Sequence record: PZ445487.1
DNA: 64,000 bases
Strand: one strand, 5' to 3'
Source of the DNA: a phage
Shown here: one piece after another, positions 2,039 to 62,277 of the stretch
Layout: each line of letters begins with the position of its first letter
Numbering within the stretch: position 1 is the first letter of the stretch
Program-made: the position numbers and the translations under genes
Notes under the pieces: generated by a model
What the model was told of the DNA's origin: nothing
The model's database searches: none
The model's input: the letters and a program-made list of their open reading frames with translations, nothing else

Positions 2039-2087
2039 TCCGGTCTAAATACCCATAACACAATGAAACTTCGTTATGGGTATTTTT

Positions 2088-2687
2088 ATGAAATTTTGCG
2101 GAATCGACTATTCTTACGGCTGTCCAGCCATGTGCTTCTGGGACGACAAAGATCCTCTGGATTTTGATCATCTTCATTTCTATGCACACCATACCGTTGA
2201 GAAGCACTGTCGTCAAGTGCGACACAATATTCTTATTTTACGTCAACCCAAATATGAATCCCCCGAAGAACGGTTTTATAACATTTCCAAATGGGCTGAA
2301 GCCGTACTTCTTACGGAGAAGCCGGATTTCATCACCCTAGAAGGCTATGCTATGGGGAATTCAAAAAACTCCAATAACATATGCCAAACCGCCGAGAACA
2401 CATCTCTATTGAAACAAGCGATGCGCCGGAACAATATGGAATTTCAGATTGTTACCCCGTCTTTTGTTAAGAAACATTTTTGTGGTAAAGGAAATGCCGA
2501 CAAATTGGTCATGATAGATCACTTTGAGAAGCTGTTCAACGTTAAGATGCGCGGTATAATGGACATGTTGGACGTGAAGGATCCAAAGCCAATCGATGAC
2601 CTCGTGGATTCGTTCGCAAATATGGTTTCTGGTCCTTACTTCATAGAAAATTATCCTGATTTCAATAGAGGTGTAAGAAATGATTAA
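2088..2687 (+). CDS. RuvC-like Holliday junction resolvase
   Basis: N-terminal KFCGIDYSYG (RuvC GID motif), ITLEGYAMG second acidic motif, FCGKGNADK and DSFANM C-terminal motifs; start at ATG aa5 of track ORF. Confidence 0.5.
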   Translation: MKFCGIDYSYGCPAMCFWDDKDPLDFDHLHFYAHHTVEKHCRQVRHNILILRQPKYESPEERFYNISKWAEAVLLTEKPDFITLEGYAMGNSKNSNNICQTAENTSLLKQAMRRNNMEFQIVTPSFVKKHFCGKGNADKLVMIDHFEKLFNVKMRGIMDMLDVKDPKPIDDLVDSFANMVSGPYFIENYPDFNRGVRND

Positions 2688-2976
2688 CTACTGGCTGCTG
2701 GCAGATATACTGCTTTTCGCCTTGCTGTTGATGACGGCGTTTGTTTGGATTAAGGGATTCTTGACATTCCTTCATTCATTAAGTGCCATGGTATCTTTCT
2801 ATGCGGTTTCACCACATAGTGACGTCAATGTAAGAGCTGCAAATCAATCTGATATGTTGGCCGAATATGTTTTGCTGCGTGATAAAGCAAGCAGGATTGT
2901 CCTGTTTTCTACGCTGGTGGGAGCAGTTATTATATTTCTACGACACGTATTGGAGGCGATTCATGCCGTTTTATGA
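2680..2976 (+). CDS. small membrane protein
   Basis: 98-aa ORF with hydrophobic helices; overlaps neighbours by a few codons. Confidence 0.4.
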   Translation: MINYWLLADILLFALLLMTAFVWIKGFLTFLHSLSAMVSFYAVSPHSDVNVRAANQSDMLAEYVLLRDKASRIVLFSTLVGAVIIFLRHVLEAIHAVL

Positions 2977-3208
2977 TTATGCCTGTACAGGTTGTGGAAA
3001 TTCGTTTAGTGCTCGAAAATCTTGTGCTGAACGTCATACACCTGAATTAGAGCCATGTTCTGAATGTGGCGGTGAAATAAAAATGATTATTGGAGCACCA
3101 AAGATCGTATCTGGTGTTCGTGGTCCTCAGTCCGCGCCTGATGGCTTCAAAGACGTTTTGCGTCATATTAAGAAGCAATCAGGGAAGGGGAATACAATCG
3201 ATGTCTGA
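2963..3208 (+). CDS. FmdB-like zinc-ribbon protein
   Basis: MPFYDYACTGCG...CSECGG two CxxC pairs; GGAGG RBS upstream of internal ATG of track ORF 2867-3208. Confidence 0.45.
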   Translation: MPFYDYACTGCGNSFSARKSCAERHTPELEPCSECGGEIKMIIGAPKIVSGVRGPQSAPDGFKDVLRHIKKQSGKGNTIDV

Positions 3209-3443
3209 TCAACAAATAGCACAAGTGCTCACACCAGATTCTTTTTCCGAATTGGTGTTGATGAGAGCAAGCCAACGCAAGGAATCAATCCTTGAAACGA
3301 TGGCCAGTGTTTGTGAAGAGTATGACATCGAAGAAGCAAAGGTCAAAAAATTGATCACGCCTCCTCTTCTGTCAAGGCTAACAGCTGAATGTTCTGATGC
3401 TCGGTTGTTGAAGGGTGAATTGAAATCTAAAAAACTCATTTAA
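3201..3443 (+). CDS. hypothetical protein
   Basis: track ORF 3090-3443 trimmed to ATG (MSDQQIAQ) overlapping upstream stop ATGTCTGA. Confidence 0.4.
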   Translation: MSDQQIAQVLTPDSFSELVLMRASQRKESILETMASVCEEYDIEEAKVKKLITPPLLSRLTAECSDARLLKGELKSKKLI

Positions 3444-3452
3444 GGTTGTAAC

Positions 3453-3692
3453 ATGAGCAAAGAGCAAATCTATAAAATGTTGAAGGCGCAAGAGTATCTG
3501 CCAGGTTCTATCCGCTGGCGGCACGGTAGCCTCAATGAACATGCTGATGATATGGATCGTGTACGTTACACGACGCCGGAAGGTAAATCCTATGTCATCG
3601 AATACCATACATTCTTGGAAGGACACAAAACCTTCTCAGATGTGTACGACATTATTGAAATAGACCCAGCAAAACAAATGATTGCGGGTTAA
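3453..3692 (+). CDS. hypothetical protein
   Basis: 79-aa ORF with AAGG RBS. Confidence 0.45.
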   Translation: MSKEQIYKMLKAQEYLPGSIRWRHGSLNEHADDMDRVRYTTPEGKSYVIEYHTFLEGHKTFSDVYDIIEIDPAKQMIAG

Positions 3693-3693
3693 C

Positions 3694-3716
3694 TCAATAG
3701 CAAAACGCAGTATAAT
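3694..3716 (+). promoter_or_regulatory. putative promoter upstream of gene 32 (CTCAATA box + TATAAT)
   Basis: CTCAATAGCAAAACGCAGTATAAT about 70 nt upstream of gp32 ATG; approximate. Confidence 0.35.
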
Positions 3717-3788
3717 TACACCGTCGGAATAATTGACAAATACATTTACAGAATAGCCCGAAGGGGCGGATTATAGAGGAATATTAAA

Positions 3789-4820
3789 ATGGGTAATTTA
3801 TTTGATCGTCTTAAACAATCTCGTGGCCAACAAGCCGAAGCTATGCAACAGCGACTCGCTCAGCAAGGCCAGCGTGTTGGTGGCGGTCGTGACCCGCGCA
3901 TCTGGAAGTGGACCTGGAATGACAAGGGTACTTCTGAAAACATCATTCGTTTCCTGCCGATCCCTTTGGTGGACATGAAGGCTCAAGAAGAAGGCACCAT
4001 CCCTGAAGATGCTGTGTTAACTCCGTGTGCCATGATCATGAAACACGCATTCCAGGGCGCTGGTGGTTGGTATATCGAAAACTCTCCTCAGACTTTCGGT
4101 AACGATGATCCTGTTCGTGACCATGACCGTCCTCTGTGGGCACAACAGAAAGAAACGAATGATGAAAAGCTGAAAACAGTTCTCAAAAAACGTCTGCCGG
4201 ACACCAAATACTACGCCAACATCCTGGTGATCAAAGATGGTAACAATCCGGAAAACAACGGCAAGGTCTTCTTGCTTGAGTTCGGTAATGCCGTCAAGAA
4301 AATCCTGGATTCGGCTCAGAATCCTAAGTTCTCAACTGACCCTAAATTCGACCCGTTCGATATGTGGGAAGGCGCGAACCTGATTCTGAACCTCTTTGGT
4401 GAAGAGAAAGAGTTCGGAAACTGGAAAGGTCTGGTGGCTAACTTCACCAATGTGAAGTGGGATACTCCGGCACCTTTGGGGACAGACGAATACATTGAAG
4501 AGATCTGGGAAAAAGAACACAGTCTGTTTGAGTTCTTTAATCCGGCCAACTTCAAATCGTACGAAGATCTGGAAAAACGTTTGCGCAAAGTTCTGGCCAT
4601 CCCTGATAATCAGCCTCTGGTTGAAGGTGGTGCTTCTACTATGGCACATGCGCCTACCCAGTCTCAGGAACCCCAGCGCCCAACAGCGCAGGAAAGTCTG
4701 AACCAACAACAATCTCAGCCTTCTAATGCACAGCAATCTGTTCCAGCCAATAATGGTGGTGCCGATGCGAAACAGACGGCTTCCATTGATGAGTTCGAGC
4801 AGTTCCTGAAGCAAGACTAA
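3789..4820 (+). CDS. 32: single-stranded DNA-binding protein (T4 gp32 family)
   Basis: IRFLP, YANILVIKD, ENNGKVF, WEGANL, FNPANFKSYEDLEKR segments collinear with T4 gp32; acidic/Q-rich C-terminus; GAGGA RBS. Confidence 0.85.
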   Translation: MGNLFDRLKQSRGQQAEAMQQRLAQQGQRVGGGRDPRIWKWTWNDKGTSENIIRFLPIPLVDMKAQEEGTIPEDAVLTPCAMIMKHAFQGAGGWYIENSPQTFGNDDPVRDHDRPLWAQQKETNDEKLKTVLKKRLPDTKYYANILVIKDGNNPENNGKVFLLEFGNAVKKILDSAQNPKFSTDPKFDPFDMWEGANLILNLFGEEKEFGNWKGLVANFTNVKWDTPAPLGTDEYIEEIWEKEHSLFEFFNPANFKSYEDLEKRLRKVLAIPDNQPLVEGGASTMAHAPTQSQEPQRPTAQESLNQQQSQPSNAQQSVPANNGGADAKQTASIDEFEQFLKQD

Positions 4821-8797: not shown

Positions 8798-8812
8798 TTT
8801 AATTCAGAAGCG

Positions 8813-8856
8813 TTCAATAGATAAAGGGGCTGCTATAATAGCAGCTCCTTTTGTTT
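8813..8856 (+). promoter_or_regulatory. composite terminator/promoter element (TTCAAT N15 TATAAT with -10 in hairpin loop, then T-run)
   Basis: TTCAATAGATAAAGGGGCTGCTATAATAGCAGCTCCTTTTGTTT; 9-bp stem, loop TATAATA; approximate coordinates. Confidence 0.5.
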
Positions 8857-8869
8857 ATTGGAGCATGTC

Positions 8870-9532
8870 ATGTCTTATTCGCTCAAAGGGCTGTTGAAGC
8901 GCCCTGTGCATTTGTTTGTCAAACCACCTGCTGTAGAAAGGGAATATTCGGCACGAGGAGAGTTGTATTACATTAAAGGCTCCAATGGTAGTGGTAAGTC
9001 TACTGTGCCTTCTTATTTGGCGGAGAATGATCCTCAGGCGTATGTCGTAACCCACAACAGTAAGATCATGCTCACGGTTTGTCCATCTTATAATATTGTC
9101 TGTGTCGGTAAATATGACAAGTCTAAGTCCAAAGGGGTTGATTCTCTGAAGGATACTGAGCAGATGTTGTTCGCGTTGTCTATTGCTGACCAACCAGAAT
9201 ACCTGAAATATGATGTGATTTTCGAAGGCATCATTCCGTCTACATTATTGAGTTCTTGGATTCCCCGCCTGACACGCCCACCACGTGAATTGGTCGTCCT
9301 CTTTATGGATACCCCTCTTGAAACCTGTATTGCCCGTGTTAAATCGCGTAACGGTGGCGCAGACTTCAATGAAAGTCTGGTGGTCGAGAAGTGGGAGAGA
9401 GTTCATGATCACCGTCAACGGCATAAAGGCTTGTTCCCTACCGTTCCCGCAGGTATGATGAAGTCCGATGGCCTGACTGTAGAGCAGGCTGTTTTTGCGT
9501 TTCTCAATCGTGATTTTGGGAGTATTTATTGA
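8870..9532 (+). CDS. P-loop NTPase/kinase-like protein
   Basis: Walker A GSNGSGKST; start at ATG with GGAG RBS (aa5 of track ORF, whose first codon is TTG). Confidence 0.5.
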   Translation: MSYSLKGLLKRPVHLFVKPPAVEREYSARGELYYIKGSNGSGKSTVPSYLAENDPQAYVVTHNSKIMLTVCPSYNIVCVGKYDKSKSKGVDSLKDTEQMLFALSIADQPEYLKYDVIFEGIIPSTLLSSWIPRLTRPPRELVVLFMDTPLETCIARVKSRNGGADFNESLVVEKWERVHDHRQRHKGLFPTVPAGMMKSDGLTVEQAVFAFLNRDFGSIY

Positions 9533-15024: not shown

Positions 15025-15026
15025 CT

Positions 15027-15054
15027 TCAATAATGGTGATCATAGGGTATAATC
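15027..15054 (+). promoter_or_regulatory. putative promoter (TTCAATAA N16 TATAAT)
   Basis: CTTCAATAATGGTGATCATAGGGTATAATC upstream of 15088. Confidence 0.4.
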
Positions 15055-15087
15055 TCTATGATCTGAATATTAACCCAGGAGCACATC

Positions 15088-15768: not shown

Positions 15769-15796
15769 CTTCAATAAAACTTTACTTCAATAAAAC
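15764..15796 (+). repeat. tandem direct repeat of TTTACTTCAATAAAAC (2 copies)
   Basis: two adjacent copies of a 16-nt unit carrying the TTCAATAAA box, upstream of 15853. Confidence 0.6.
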
Positions 15797-15852
15797 TTGC
15801 GGCTATCATTTAACCTACATTGAAAAGTTTCACTACATCATGAGAGGCAAAA

Positions 15853-17926: not shown

Positions 17927-18332
17927 AATCCAATGCAAATGCTGTCCGAACAAGAAGATGGTTCGCCAGGCCGACATTGACCGTGGCTGGGGGTTGTTCT
18001 GTTCTAAGTCTTGCGCCGCCTACTGGAAGACCTTTGGGTGTCGTAAAGATACCCCAACAGACCTGTCCCTGAATGGCAAGCGACCTAAATCGGCGCAGGC
18101 AATCCTTTCTGATTTGCGGAAAGAGTCTGTCCGCCTTTCTGCTGGCCTCACTGAAGAGCAGATGGACAAACTCAATAAGGCGGGTTGTGGTTATATCCGA
18201 TTCGACGGAATGGACTATCCTCTGTTCAGTTCTCGCCAGCTCAGAGTCCTTGGGGCTTCAAAGGCTGAGATAAGAGAAGCTGAACGCGATGAAGCCGAAG
18301 AGGGCGCATACGGCCATCACGATTTTCAATAA
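17913..18332 (+). CDS. hypothetical zinc-finger protein
   Basis: track ORF 17721-18332 trimmed to ATG (MSKVEIQCKCCPNKK) overlapping upstream stop; CxC..C..C pattern. Confidence 0.4.
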   Translation: MSKVEIQCKCCPNKKMVRQADIDRGWGLFCSKSCAAYWKTFGCRKDTPTDLSLNGKRPKSAQAILSDLRKESVRLSAGLTEEQMDKLNKAGCGYIRFDGMDYPLFSSRQLRVLGASKAEIREAERDEAEEGAYGHHDFQ

Positions 18333-18379
18333 ACGATTTACCCATATAATGCATGGGAACTTTACAGAAGGATCAGACT

Positions 18380-20224: not shown

Positions 20225-20271
20225 CGGGGTTCTTCGGAACCCCCATTCAATAAAGACAGTAGCAGTATAAT
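20225..20271 (+). promoter_or_regulatory. terminator hairpin followed by TTCAATAAA N14 TATAAT promoter-like element
   Basis: CGGGGTTCTTCGGAACCCC hairpin then ATTCAATAAAGACAGTAGCAGTATAATT; approximate. Confidence 0.45.
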
Positions 20272-26244: not shown

Positions 26245-26297
26245 GGTCTGAAGCCCTTTAATTAGAATAGAGTGATGACACTATTTAGGACTAGAAT

Positions 26298-33432: not shown

Positions 33433-33481
33433 GTTATTTGTCTCATTATGGGGTTAGGCGGCAATTATACCGCCAATTTAT

Positions 33482-33895
33482 TCAATAGAGGTCTTCGGAA
33501 AAGAGTTTTTTGAAAGGAGTGTTCTTCAAACGGACCTGATTAGTTTGTCCGGCTTCACGGGCGACCACAGCGGCCTCTTCACGGGACATCCATTGCCCAT
33601 AGTTATCAATAAACCCTTGTTCACGAGTGTGGGTGGTTTCGATAATACCTGCTTCCTTCAATCGTTTGAGTTGCGTGTTCATCAATTTGTCGTGATGTCG
33701 GGCGCTTACAACGATCACATCACCATATTTGTTGGCAGCAGCCACAACACGCCGATCAAACTTGGTTGGGTCAGGTATATCACGAGCATACAAGGCGATG
33801 TGAGTGTCGTCCACGTCCCCTTTCACTTCAGAGTATAATTGACACCCATTAGGAGATCCAGTAGGCAAAGAACGAAAATATCCAAGTAATTTCAT
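33482..33895 (-). CDS. hypothetical protein
   Basis: 137-aa ORF. Confidence 0.4.
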   Translation of the reverse strand: MKLLGYFRSLPTGSPNGCQLYSEVKGDVDDTHIALYARDIPDPTKFDRRVVAAANKYGDVIVVSARHHDKLMNTQLKRLKEAGIIETTHTREQGFIDNYGQWMSREEAAVVAREAGQTNQVRLKNTPFKKLFSEDLY

Positions 33896-35945: not shown

Positions 35946-37779
35946 TCTTCAGTGACTGCTTGTATCCATCGTCCAGCGTGACCGTCGTAGTATACGCATC
36001 CAGGTTGTTTAGAATACGCTTGAAGTCTTCAGTGCTGTTACCGCCAAGACCTTTCAGATATTTCTTCTTCGTGATCTTCTTGGCGTCAGGTGTCTTCAGG
36101 AACTCCTCATATTCGGCATTGTTCATGAATTCATGCATTATATTACCACACCACACGCGCATGTATGGGGTACGAAGGAGCTTCAGCCTACCCTGACGAA
36201 CGTATTCAGGCCAGAACGTACAATACAGAGTTATTAACAACCCACGGATGTGAATGCCGTCGTCATCCGCGTCTGTTGCCACGACGGTCTGTGGATAGCG
36301 ACTGATATCAAGCGGCTGGCCTGGCACAGCACCGCCGTGAATGGTGCATAAATTCTTGAATTCTTCGTTCGCCATCACTTTTGAGCGCGGGGCGTTCAAG
36401 CAGTTGATAAACTTACCACGAAGCGGGAACAAACCAATTTTCTTGGTATCACGAGCGTTCAGGATAGGGTTGGATGCGCTATCACCTTCTGTCAGTAGCA
36501 GCGAACACCCACTGCGGTCGCCTCTGGCGGTCGCCGGATAATACTTCTCAATCTCACGATAATCCCGTTTGCTGATATCCTTCTTCGCCTTTTCAAATTC
36601 GGCATCTTCTTGTTCATTGCGTAATGAAGCCAGTTCTTTACTCAGCCCTGCTGTCACGAACTCAAGCGCCTTACGAATCAGACGTTCGCTTGGCTTGTAG
36701 GTCGTGCCAAACTGGCTAACAGGAGTCGTCATGCGCTCCTTGGTCTGGCTGTCAAAGCGAGGGTTGTTGATGTCGGCGGCGATGAACAATGACATGTGGT
36801 TCTTGATCATCGCTGGCTTCAGTTCGGTCTTGAACTTCTTAACCAGCTGAGGGCGTATAGCCGCCACGATCTGGTCAGCAACATAATCAACGTGAGGTCC
36901 ACCGATGTGCGTGGCGATTGAGTTCACGTATGATGCATGCATGAACGCACCAGATGAGGGAGTGATAGCAACAGACCAATCATCCGTTTCATCAACAGCC
37001 GAGCCAGCGTAGAAGTAATCAACGAAATGACCAAATCGATCAATGCGGATTTGCTTGCCGTTGAGAACAACCTTCAGGCGCGGGTTGCATGCCGCCACTT
37101 CGAATGCACGACGGTAAATCATGAGCAGGTTGTTCTGGTCAAGCCCCTTAACACCCAGGCGCGCATAATCAGGGATCCAGGCAATAGTGGTGCCGAACTC
37201 TTTCGGTGTATTGCCGATGACCGGATTGGACTTCTTGCTCATGTTGTCTTCAAACAGCTGAGTATAAGACTTCTTGCCGTCACTGGTAGCAACGCGGAAC
37301 CACTTTGAGAACACGTTGACGAGCGAAGCCCCTTCACCGTTCTGGCCGCCGGACTTCTGGTTGTTGTACTCCTCGTCCTCATCGTTGAAGTTGCTGCCCG
37401 CATAGAGCGAGCCAAACAACATCTCAGGGAGCCACTCATTGGTGACGCCATGCTTGACCACAGGGATACCCCCGTTGTCAGAAACGATGATTTGACCGTT
37501 CATAGGGGAGACCGTGACGGTGATTTCCGTCAAGCCTTTACCCTCAGAGGTCTTGCTGTGGTCAACACAGTTGGTGATGATTTCATCAAACTGTTTGATC
37601 AGCGCAGGGGAGTACTCAAAGTTGTCACGGAAGATGACTTTGTCTTTGGTTGGGTCATACACCCACACCGTCCCCACAGACGAACGGATACTGCCCAGAT
37701 GACGCTCTGGGCGAAGTAGGATATGCTCTATGTGAGTGAGCTTTTTGTATTTGCGTTCAATATCAATTTTGTTGGACAT
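35866..37779 (-). CDS. 39: DNA topoisomerase II large subunit (gp39, GyrB-like; appears fused with gp60 region)
   Basis: GHKL ATPase motifs, RFDSQTKER and LTEGDSA Toprim-region motifs collinear with T4 gp39; 637 aa. Confidence 0.85.
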   Translation of the reverse strand: MSNKIDIERKYKKLTHIEHILLRPERHLGSIRSSVGTVWVYDPTKDKVIFRDNFEYSPALIKQFDEIITNCVDHSKTSEGKGLTEITVTVSPMNGQIIVSDNGGIPVVKHGVTNEWLPEMLFGSLYAGSNFNDEDEEYNNQKSGGQNGEGASLVNVFSKWFRVATSDGKKSYTQLFEDNMSKKSNPVIGNTPKEFGTTIAWIPDYARLGVKGLDQNNLLMIYRRAFEVAACNPRLKVVLNGKQIRIDRFGHFVDYFYAGSAVDETDDWSVAITPSSGAFMHASYVNSIATHIGGPHVDYVADQIVAAIRPQLVKKFKTELKPAMIKNHMSLFIAADINNPRFDSQTKERMTTPVSQFGTTYKPSERLIRKALEFVTAGLSKELASLRNEQEDAEFEKAKKDISKRDYREIEKYYPATARGDRSGCSLLLTEGDSASNPILNARDTKKIGLFPLRGKFINCLNAPRSKVMANEEFKNLCTIHGGAVPGQPLDISRYPQTVVATDADDDGIHIRGLLITLYCTFWPEYVRQGRLKLLRTPYMRVWCGNIMHEFMNNAEYEEFLKTPDAKKITKKKYLKGLGGNSTEDFKRILNNLDAYTTTVTLDDGYKQSLKNGFGDEAADYRKTWFSDVCLFETEDE

Positions 37780-47577: not shown

Positions 47578-47951
47578 TTTCGTTTACTCCGATTTTTATA
47601 TTTCTTAGCCTGACGTTTATGTTGGGCGGCTCCATATAGGCGCGGCGGCTTTTGATAACGTTGTGACGCAATTATGTCTCTGTCATCGGCTTCACAATAC
47701 GAAATATCTGCCTTCCGTAACTGAGCCACCGCTTGAGATACCAAGGTTTTGCGTTCACTTTCTACCAGATCATCACAAATTATCATGCGTTCACCTGGTT
47801 CACAACAACGTTTAGGAATATCGTCTACACTGATACATTCTACTTCAACACCTTTCAACTTTTCTTGAAGGATAATGGCCATAGTCCGAGCGCCGATTCC
47901 TCCTCCAATAATCGCTATCTTTCTTGTCTTGTCTGTCATGTTCTTGCCCAT
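47574..47951 (-). CDS. hypothetical protein with Rossmann-like GGGIG motif
   Basis: KIAIIGGGIGA dinucleotide-binding-like motif; track start 47969 is TTG inside a hairpin, ATG at 47951 or 47939 more likely. Confidence 0.4.
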   Translation of the reverse strand: MGKNMTDKTRKIAIIGGGIGARTMAIILQEKLKGVEVECISVDDIPKRCCEPGERMIICDDLVESERKTLVSQAVAQLRKADISYCEADDRDIIASQRYQKPPRLYGAAQHKRQAKKYKNRSKRK

Positions 47952-47956
47952 GAAAA

Positions 47957-47994
47957 GGGGATAGAGCAATAATACCCTATCCCCATTTATTGAA
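47957..47994 (-). promoter_or_regulatory. composite terminator/promoter element (TTCAAT N14 TATTAT in hairpin loop, T-run)
   Basis: minus orientation TTCTTCAATAAATGGGGATAGGGTATTATTGCTCTATCCCCTTTTC; approximate. Confidence 0.5.
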
Positions 47995-50714: not shown

Positions 50715-50725
50715 GATATAGGACC

Positions 50726-50917
50726 TCAGTATAATTTCGTATAAACTTGTTTAACGCCAATATCGGCAGGAGCTGTGCTCTGCTGCATATTATAGAATGC
50801 CAAATCTGCTTGTTCTTTGTTTTCAAAATCAACTACAACTGTGTGTACTGATATTGCTTCACCCTGTCCATAAGCATAACAACGGCTGGTGACCAATATT
50901 TTGTATTGAGGTGTCAT
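50726..50917 (-). CDS. hypothetical protein
   Basis: 63-aa ORF with AAGGA RBS. Confidence 0.4.
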   Translation of the reverse strand: MTPQYKILVTSRCYAYGQGEAISVHTVVVDFENKEQADLAFYNMQQSTAPADIGVKQVYTKLY

Positions 50918-50941
50918 AAAATCAATCCTTGCAAAAAGAAA

Positions 50942-50980
50942 GGGGAACGGGCTAATAATAACCCATTCCCCTTTATTGAA
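50942..50980 (-). promoter_or_regulatory. composite terminator/promoter element (TTCAAT N14 TATTAT in hairpin loop, T-run)
   Basis: minus orientation TTCTTCAATAAAGGGGAATGGGTTATTATTAGCCCGTTCCCCTTTCTTT; approximate. Confidence 0.5.
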
Positions 50981-55541: not shown

Positions 55542-55601
55542 AACAATACCTGTTGTCAAAGGGATAACAGGGGGAATTATATCCCCCTTTGGTTTATTGA
55601 A

Positions 55602-59504: not shown

Positions 59505-59599
59505 AATATTTATTGAATAAAGTTTACTTCTTCAATAACTGGCGTATACTTCTAATTGTAGTACGAACAAACAACAATCTGAAGAGAAGGAAATACATC

Positions 59600-62238: not shown

Positions 62239-62277
62239 AGATACCCCACACTGGTCGTATGGGGTATTTAGGATGGA

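Follow-up and report, generated by a model that had tools for sequence, protein, structure and literature searches.

Composite promoter-terminator motifs have been described in T4-type phages. These promoter-early stem-loops (PeSLs) are known from RB49/phi1, PST/T4 and nt-1/KVP40 (Arbiol 2010, PMC2839356; Comeau 2014, PMC4122927), and reporter-assay evidence is available for them (PMC2839356). Comeau et al. further described PmSLs, in which a Mot box and a TATTAT -10 are combined with a stem-loop (PMC4122927). For CBA120, according to the 2011 genome paper, informatics could reveal neither early nor middle promoters and the ViI-like late promoter was unidentified; the paper also reported no MotA or AsiA homologs (PMC3184105). 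The searchable literature contains no transcript-end mapping for the Ackermannviridae.

Here we analyzed a stretch of 64,000 nucleotides of phage DNA (sequence record PZ445487.1, hereafter the window), which is 100% identical to Escherichia phage Cba120 (NC_016570.1), a Kuttervirus of the Ackermannviridae, and corresponds exactly to the reverse complement of its genome positions 139606-157304 joined to 1-46301. Genome-wide tests used the whole annotated Cba120 genome, and the relatives used for comparison were taken from IMG/VR. Positions below are those of the window unless they are called genome positions.

A sequence-only reading of the window had pointed to three sites with a shared architecture (8811-8856 on the plus strand, 47957-47994 and 50942-50980 on the minus strand), where a TTCAAT box is followed by a GC-rich stem with a -10 hexamer as its loop and then by a T-run close to the next start codon. 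All three are present (Table 1), and RNA folding and an independent consensus scanner agree on them. Compared with shuffles, site 1 folds at -32.1 kcal/mol (z = -5.6), site 2 at -26.3 kcal/mol (z = -3.2) and site 3 at -31.0 kcal/mol (z = -5.0; its hairpin centred on the -10 gives -25.6 kcal/mol), and the scanner places the sites as the top terminator-like structures in their 20-kb regions. In each of them a purine-rich 5' arm of 10-16 nt lies within the 14-15-nt spacer and the 3' arm is pyrimidine-rich, with TATAAT or TATTAT at the hairpin tip and the start codon 10-15 nt past the T-run. The hairpin and T-run are built like an intrinsic terminator that would serve the upstream gene, as had been proposed, and both sequence statistics and the relatives are in line with this; the U-run of site 2 is short (UUUU). 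Two details needed correction, namely that the box reads TTCAATA(A/G) and not TTCAAT(A/G)A, and that the hexamer does stand at the tip but its outer bases pair, leaving an open loop of only 3-4 nt. The three sites are also not the only ones. Across the genome we count 7 strong and about 3 weaker copies of the element, which are dispersed. The fourth instance has a hairpin of -14.1 kcal/mol and a weak T-rich tail, and the variant upstream of orf019 holds TATAAT between GGCGG and CCGCC arms without a T-run.

Table 1. Positions of the composite elements and related promoter motifs of Cba120 (window coordinates unless given as genome positions).
Feature	Position	Strand	Parts and remarks
Site 1 composite element, between orf076 and orf074 (dNMP-kinase-like)	8813..8859	+	box TTCAATAG 8813-8820; 5' arm 8823-8835; TATAAT 8834-8839; 3' arm 8839-8851; T-run TTTTGTTTATT 8849-8859
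orf074 translation signals		+	Shine-Dalgarno GGAG 8860-8863; ATG 8870-8872
Site 2 composite element, between orf255 and orf256	47952..47994	-	box TTCAATAA 47987-47994; 5' arm 47975-47984; TATTAT 47969-47974; 3' arm 47957-47966; TTTT 47953-47956; ATG 47937-47939
Site 3 composite element, between orf249 and orf250	50933..50980	-	box 50973-50980; 5' arm 50959-50974; TATTAT 50955-50960; 3' arm 50939-50954; T-run 50933-50941; Shine-Dalgarno AAGGA 50926-50930; ATG 50915-50917
Fourth instance, after the DNA polymerase gene, upstream of orf238	55569..55601	-	box 55594-55601; arm AGGGGGA 55582-55588; TATAAT 55576-55581; arm TCCCCCT 55569-55575
Fifth instance, after the gp41 helicase gene, upstream of orf064	15026..15063	+	box 15026-15033; arm 15038-15047; TATAAT 15048-15053; arm 15054-15063
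Box variant upstream of orf019	33457..33485	-	TTGAATAA box 10 nt from TATAAT
Instances beyond the window	genome 74288 and 86933 (-10)
Class-A promoter without hairpin, upstream of orf050	20246..20271	+	box and -10 present
Class-A box and -10 at the usual spacing, without hairpin	genome 133395
Class-A promoter upstream of orf053	18325..18357	+	weak 5-bp stem CCCAT/ATGGG around -10
Second promoter type	59523-59550; 15781-15809	+
Second promoter type, further copies	genome 97477, 62084, 56229	-
Tandem boxes of the 15781-15809 promoter	15770-15777 and 15786-15793	+
CTAAATA in the window	26282-26288; 62265-62271	-	13 more elsewhere in the genome, beyond these two and the next
CTAAATA in the window	2045-2051	+

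The box and the -10 proved to be a recurrent, gene-oriented and conserved promoter-like motif that overlaps the hairpin, just as had been described. In the window, TTCAAT-N13-17-TATWAT occurs 7 times against 0.27 expected, and 0 of 100 shuffles get to 7. The motif TTCAATA(A)-N12/13-TATAAT has about 18 copies across the whole genome, almost all of them intergenic and in the orientation of the gene that follows, and a relaxed genome-wide scan gave 19 intergenic matches of this class (hereafter class A), 15 of which end 28-44 nt ahead of a co-oriented start codon. Intergenic enrichment, a genome-wide check suggested by the sequence-only reading, is also seen with the 8-mer TTCAATAA, whose 30 intergenic and 14 coding copies correspond to a roughly 20-fold greater density in intergenic DNA. 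The class-A consensus is T-rich at -3/-2, followed by TTCAATAA, N12 and TATAAT, and it contains no conserved hexamer at the sigma-70 -35 position (17 bp).

Simple re-initiation by the host sigma-70 polymerase is not supported for these sites. The box ends 12 (13) bp from the -10, and TTCAAT itself lies 14-15 bp from it. A sigma-70 scanner did not call sites 1-3, and its calls showed no enrichment (51 against 38±7 and 35 against 37±7). On these grounds a canonical sigma-70 promoter was rejected. A sigma-70 -35 element would have to lie 3 bp further from the -10 than the box does, and from this we infer that a phage factor is required, as for T4 middle promoters. A limited test of 8 annotated candidate proteins of Cba120 detected no MotA or AsiA Pfam family, and a phage-encoded sigma factor, present in a Vibrio relative, was set aside as it has no homolog in Cba120. 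The relative in question, Vibrio phage K367 g2 (OZ196356), is a distant ViI-like phage with an annotated 600-aa RNA polymerase sigma factor (2254-4056); its genome carries TTCAATAA-N11-TATAAT at 36330 and 37502, and a short stem encloses the -10 of the second of these sites.

The genes 3' of class A belong to nucleotide metabolism and replication or are small unknown genes, and include orf074 (dNMP-kinase-like), NrdA, orf064, orf238, orf053 (upstream of the ligase gene) and orf050 (upstream of gp59). Upstream of the structural and late genes the class-A motif is absent, and CTAAATA is found there instead. Because of this division we read class A as a probable pre-replicative promoter. For the same reason a late (gp55-type) promoter was rejected, since it is CTAAATA that the late genes carry.

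Hairpins are associated with this promoter class. A hairpin of -10 kcal/mol or lower centred on the -10 accompanies 7 of the 19 class-A promoters against 7 of 497 (1.4%) other TAWWAT hexamers (Fisher p = 8e-8). All 7 hairpin-bearing promoters have a co-directional gene upstream, with a gap of 57-82 nt, and the two promoter matches whose upstream gene is divergent both have no hairpin. Among the other class-A members, some are preceded closely by a terminator of its own, and in some it is the box that a hairpin surrounds. The stem at the orf053 promoter is not significant in folding (z = +0.74) and has no T-run. Thus the -10-in-loop layout is specific and recurrent, yet the promoter does not require the hairpin; upstream of orf050, box and -10 occur without one.

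A box-centred geometry, with the TTCAAT box and not the -10 in or next to the hairpin loop, was observed upstream of nrdA (genome 53546-53577, minus strand) and at genome 136891-136914 (plus strand). The hairpin of this geometry, CGTCGCCTTCA-atcca-TGGAGGCGACG, folds with -18.7 kcal/mol.

The explanation we favor, to which we would give roughly two chances in three, is that the sites are composite terminator-promoter cassettes. Read-through RNA of the upstream gene would fold into the GC-rich hairpin followed by the U-run, and most transcripts would end there. The same DNA, some 50 bases in all, would be a phage pre-replicative promoter, its TTCAATA(A) box spanning roughly -32 to -25 and its -10 being of the TATAAT type, from which transcription would restart about 7 nt past the -10, inside the 3' arm or the T-run. 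Since the only sequence-free segments of such a promoter are the 12-13-nt spacer and the region after the -10, these would become the stem arms and the hexamer would become the loop. A fixed hexamer fits only in the loop and the free segments fit the arms; this would be the tightest packing of the two signals, into about 60-80 nt. The cassette would act as a gate, closed to read-through in the early phase, behind which the downstream gene is expressed under separate control.

With such a start site, the leaders are predicted to be U-rich and roughly 25-30 nt long (about 25 nt for orf074), and they would contain a Shine-Dalgarno site, GGAG at site 1 and AAGGA at site 3. The leaderless start considered in the sequence-only reading is therefore rejected for sites 1 and 3, where these Shine-Dalgarno sites are present, and is unlikely at site 2, where relatives carry GGAG before the same ATG. 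At site 2, orf256 also has an in-frame ATG (47949-47951, minus strand) four codons upstream of its annotated start and directly 3' of the T-run; some relatives have a similar one, and the most distant have none, GGAG preceding the annotated ATG there.

In the relatives the box is invariant, the -10 stays TAnnnT (TATAAT, TATTAT, TATATT or TAATAT) and the pairing of the stem is kept. Site 1 is kept in 20 relatives with changes that preserve pairing, its G.U position moving or turning into A-U. At site 2, 96.7% of the alignment cells are paired and two pairs are changed on both sides, GGGG/CCCC becoming AGGG/CCCT; the observed covariation score was reached by 10 of 500 shuffles. At site 3, a distant clade drops one G-C pair from both arms and the stem register shifts between clades. 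Covariation at these three sites is modest because the available relatives diverge little there. The clearest case is the element downstream of gp41, where 93.5% of the cells are paired and three pairs are changed on both sides (10 compensatory cells), a result matched by 0 of 500 shuffles, while slid controls are only 33-56% paired. In the most distant relatives, where gp41 is only 69% identical, the TATAAT is the same but the stem that encloses it, GGTGGTA/TACCAC, is unrelated.

This gp41-downstream element, a conserved member that had been overlooked, has no T-run in any relative examined. Since neither its hairpin nor that of orf053 is followed by a T-run, a canonical terminator fails to explain every member of the class, and these two may be attenuators, or elements for 3'-end stability or processing. 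Such a role could be extended to the hairpins in general, which would then be mainly RNA 3'-end stability or processing elements or weak attenuators, with the promoter reading unchanged. The conserved and strongly covarying gp41 stem without a U-run is in favor of this explanation, and so are the only moderately U-rich tails after the DNA polymerase element and site 2. On the other hand, classical U-runs follow the hairpins of sites 1 and 3 and of most other members and are kept in the relatives with varying sequence, and sites 1 and 3 are the best terminator-like matches in their regions. We consider this general extension unlikely.

It could also be argued that the sites are terminators only, the TTCAAT box and the TATAAT loop being coincidental or parts of the terminator, such as an A-tract partner of the U-run. 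In the RNA folds the AAUA(A)A of the box does pair with part of the U-run. However, box and -10 are found at the same spacing without any hairpin both upstream of orf050 and at genome 133395, their count far exceeds expectation as described above and their distance to the start codon is fixed. Moreover, ordinary terminators of Cba120 have TTCG or GAAA tetraloops, and the relatives keep the box and the -10 invariant while the stems change, all of which makes this account improbable.

The non-Watson-Crick positions of the stems bear on the level at which the hairpin is selected. Counted over all variants on the sense strand, G.T mispairs amount to 49 and A.C mispairs to 4. This excess of G.T suggests that the hairpin is selected as RNA in the upstream transcript; such a wobble asymmetry is expected for sense-strand RNA, and not for a DNA cruciform or a protein operator. 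If the sites were promoters only, with the inverted repeat working as DNA, extruded into a cruciform or bound as a palindromic operator that covers the -10, one could understand that some members have no T-run and that the stem always brackets the -10. But a cruciform needs both strands paired, stems that differ between sites and covary are not those of a sequence-specific operator, there is no hairpin where the upstream gene is divergent, and many members of the class have no hairpin at all. We regard this possibility as very improbable, and reject both the operator and the cruciform on account of stem diversity, covariation and wobble asymmetry.

Sites 2 and 3 (47957-47994 and 50939-50980, minus strand) lie about 3 kb apart and are paralogous, with about 83% identity over 47 nt including the stems. 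Next to site 3, a 205-bp cassette with the 63-aa orf250 (about 50721-50925, minus strand) is present in Cba120-type genomes and missing from several relatives, and its left breakpoint is the exact 3' end of the site 3 element (after CAAGGA). That the elements matter mainly as cassettes for recombination by which small genes are shuffled, a role proposed for PeSLs, is compatible with terminator-promoter cassettes and could draw on this paralogy and this breakpoint, but only one indel was examined, it has the element at only one flank, and several elements lie between conserved core genes (gp41, DNA polymerase) with no rearrangement, so that we see very little chance of it.

Two further promoter motifs were observed. 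One is (c)TTTACT-N16/17-TATA(A/C)T, which is sigma-70-like or T4-early-like and has the TTCAATAA box in its spacer, separated from the -10 by 10 nt. In the copy at genome 62116, the -35 is at the same time the T-run of a terminator, CCCCTTTAC. The other is CTAAATA, with an intergenic enrichment of about 18-fold; each of its 16 intergenic copies precedes a co-oriented, mostly structural gene (gp22, sheath, tailspikes 2-4 and gp6 among them) at a distance of 24-79 nt, and we regard it as a candidate late promoter. Upstream of orf108 (genome 58661-58684, minus strand) a terminator hairpin, AATCCCCCT-AAATAC-AGGGGGATT, followed by TTCTTTTT, carries the late-type motif as its loop, so that the promoter-core-in-loop layout seems to be used by a second promoter class as well.

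As the box lies inside the early-type spacer, a single box-binding factor could repress the early-type promoters and activate those of class A. It is tempting to go further and propose that the TTCAATAA box defines a factor-dependent, pre-replicative promoter system of the Ackermannviridae that had gone uncharacterised, which would resemble sigma appropriation in T4 but use an unrelated box-binding protein, with the terminator fusions as temporal gates, one factor that switches early promoters off and class A on, and a separate role for the gp41 hairpin without a U-run. We offer this larger scheme tentatively, as a possibility with the odds against it; if it is true, the conserved hairpin after gp41 would serve, for instance, attenuation or transcript stabilisation. 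About 40% of the thymidines of CBA120 are hypermodified (5-NeOmdU) (PMC5889632), and the recognition of T-rich boxes may therefore depart from expectation.

These observations provide a testable transcription map, which consists of the TTCAATAA class, often fused to terminators, an early-type class with the box in its spacer, and the candidate late motif CTAAATA. Phages of the ViI-like/CBA120 type find wide use in the biocontrol of E. coli O157 and Salmonella. The results also carry the PeSL principle, in which the loop of a terminator holds the promoter core, to phages outside the T4 type, and suggest that this is a general way to insulate genes in dense phage genomes, from which synthetic biology might draw compact insulator parts.

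How do the Cba120 elements compare with the known systems? An Rfam gathering search of the window gave 0 matches, and a known RNA family was rejected on this basis. With intrinsic terminators, sites 1-3 share a short-looped, GC-rich stem of 10-16 bp that runs straight into a U-run, together with selection for the hairpin on the sense strand, as seen from the mispair counts and covariation. They differ in that the loop is a conserved promoter hexamer and not a stable tetraloop, and in that the gp41 element (15038-15063) has a hairpin without a U-run. The virion RNA polymerase of phage N4, which the phage itself encodes, recognises its promoters as extruded DNA hairpins. Although a promoter combined with a DNA inverted repeat recalls them, the likeness is superficial, since the wobble asymmetry in Cba120 points to RNA and the boxes resemble -10 elements of the host polymerase.

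The resemblance to T4 middle promoters and PmSLs is closer. In both cases an upstream box centred near -30 ends about 12 bp from a sigma-70-type -10 (TATTAT in nt-1), within the 11-13 bp typical of T4-type middle promoters, as seen from TTCAATAA-N12(13)-TATAAT. The promoters likewise stand upstream of nucleotide-metabolism and replication genes, and in nt-1 they are combined with a stem-loop. The box itself is different, being TTCAATAA and not the (T)TGCTT of MotA.

In the literature searched we found no description of the TTCAATAA box or of PeSL-like elements in the Ackermannviridae. The abstract of the Viunalikevirus genus paper (Arch Virol 2012) reportedly mentions conserved regulatory sequences, and the box may already be described there.

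Like PeSLs, the Cba120 elements unite a putative promoter and a putative stem-loop terminator in intergenic DNA and recur throughout the genome, in dispersed copies with shared sequence, and the stable stem-loop, either between the boxes or over the -10, is placed in the intergenic gap so as to terminate upstream transcription. Even the nt-1 stems, A3-4 G3-loop-C3 T3-4, resemble AAAGGGG...CCCCTTT of Cba120. PeSLs are associated with indels of small genes, for which Cba120 offers one case, the orf250 cassette abutting site 3. Unlike the PeSL promoters, which come close to the sigma-70 consensus (TTGACA/TTTACW-N17-TATAAT), the Cba120 elements have no sigma-70-like -35 at 16-18 bp from TATAAT and carry the TTCAATAA box at 14-15 bp. 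In addition, they belong to the Ackermannviridae, several of them lie between core replication genes, and their activity is predicted from sequence. The arrangement had been called unusually compact in the sequence-only reading, but T4-type phages are known to have this layout too. What appears to be new is the phage family, the TTCAATAA box and one conserved hairpin without a T-run; the architecture itself matches that of the published PeSLs and PmSLs.
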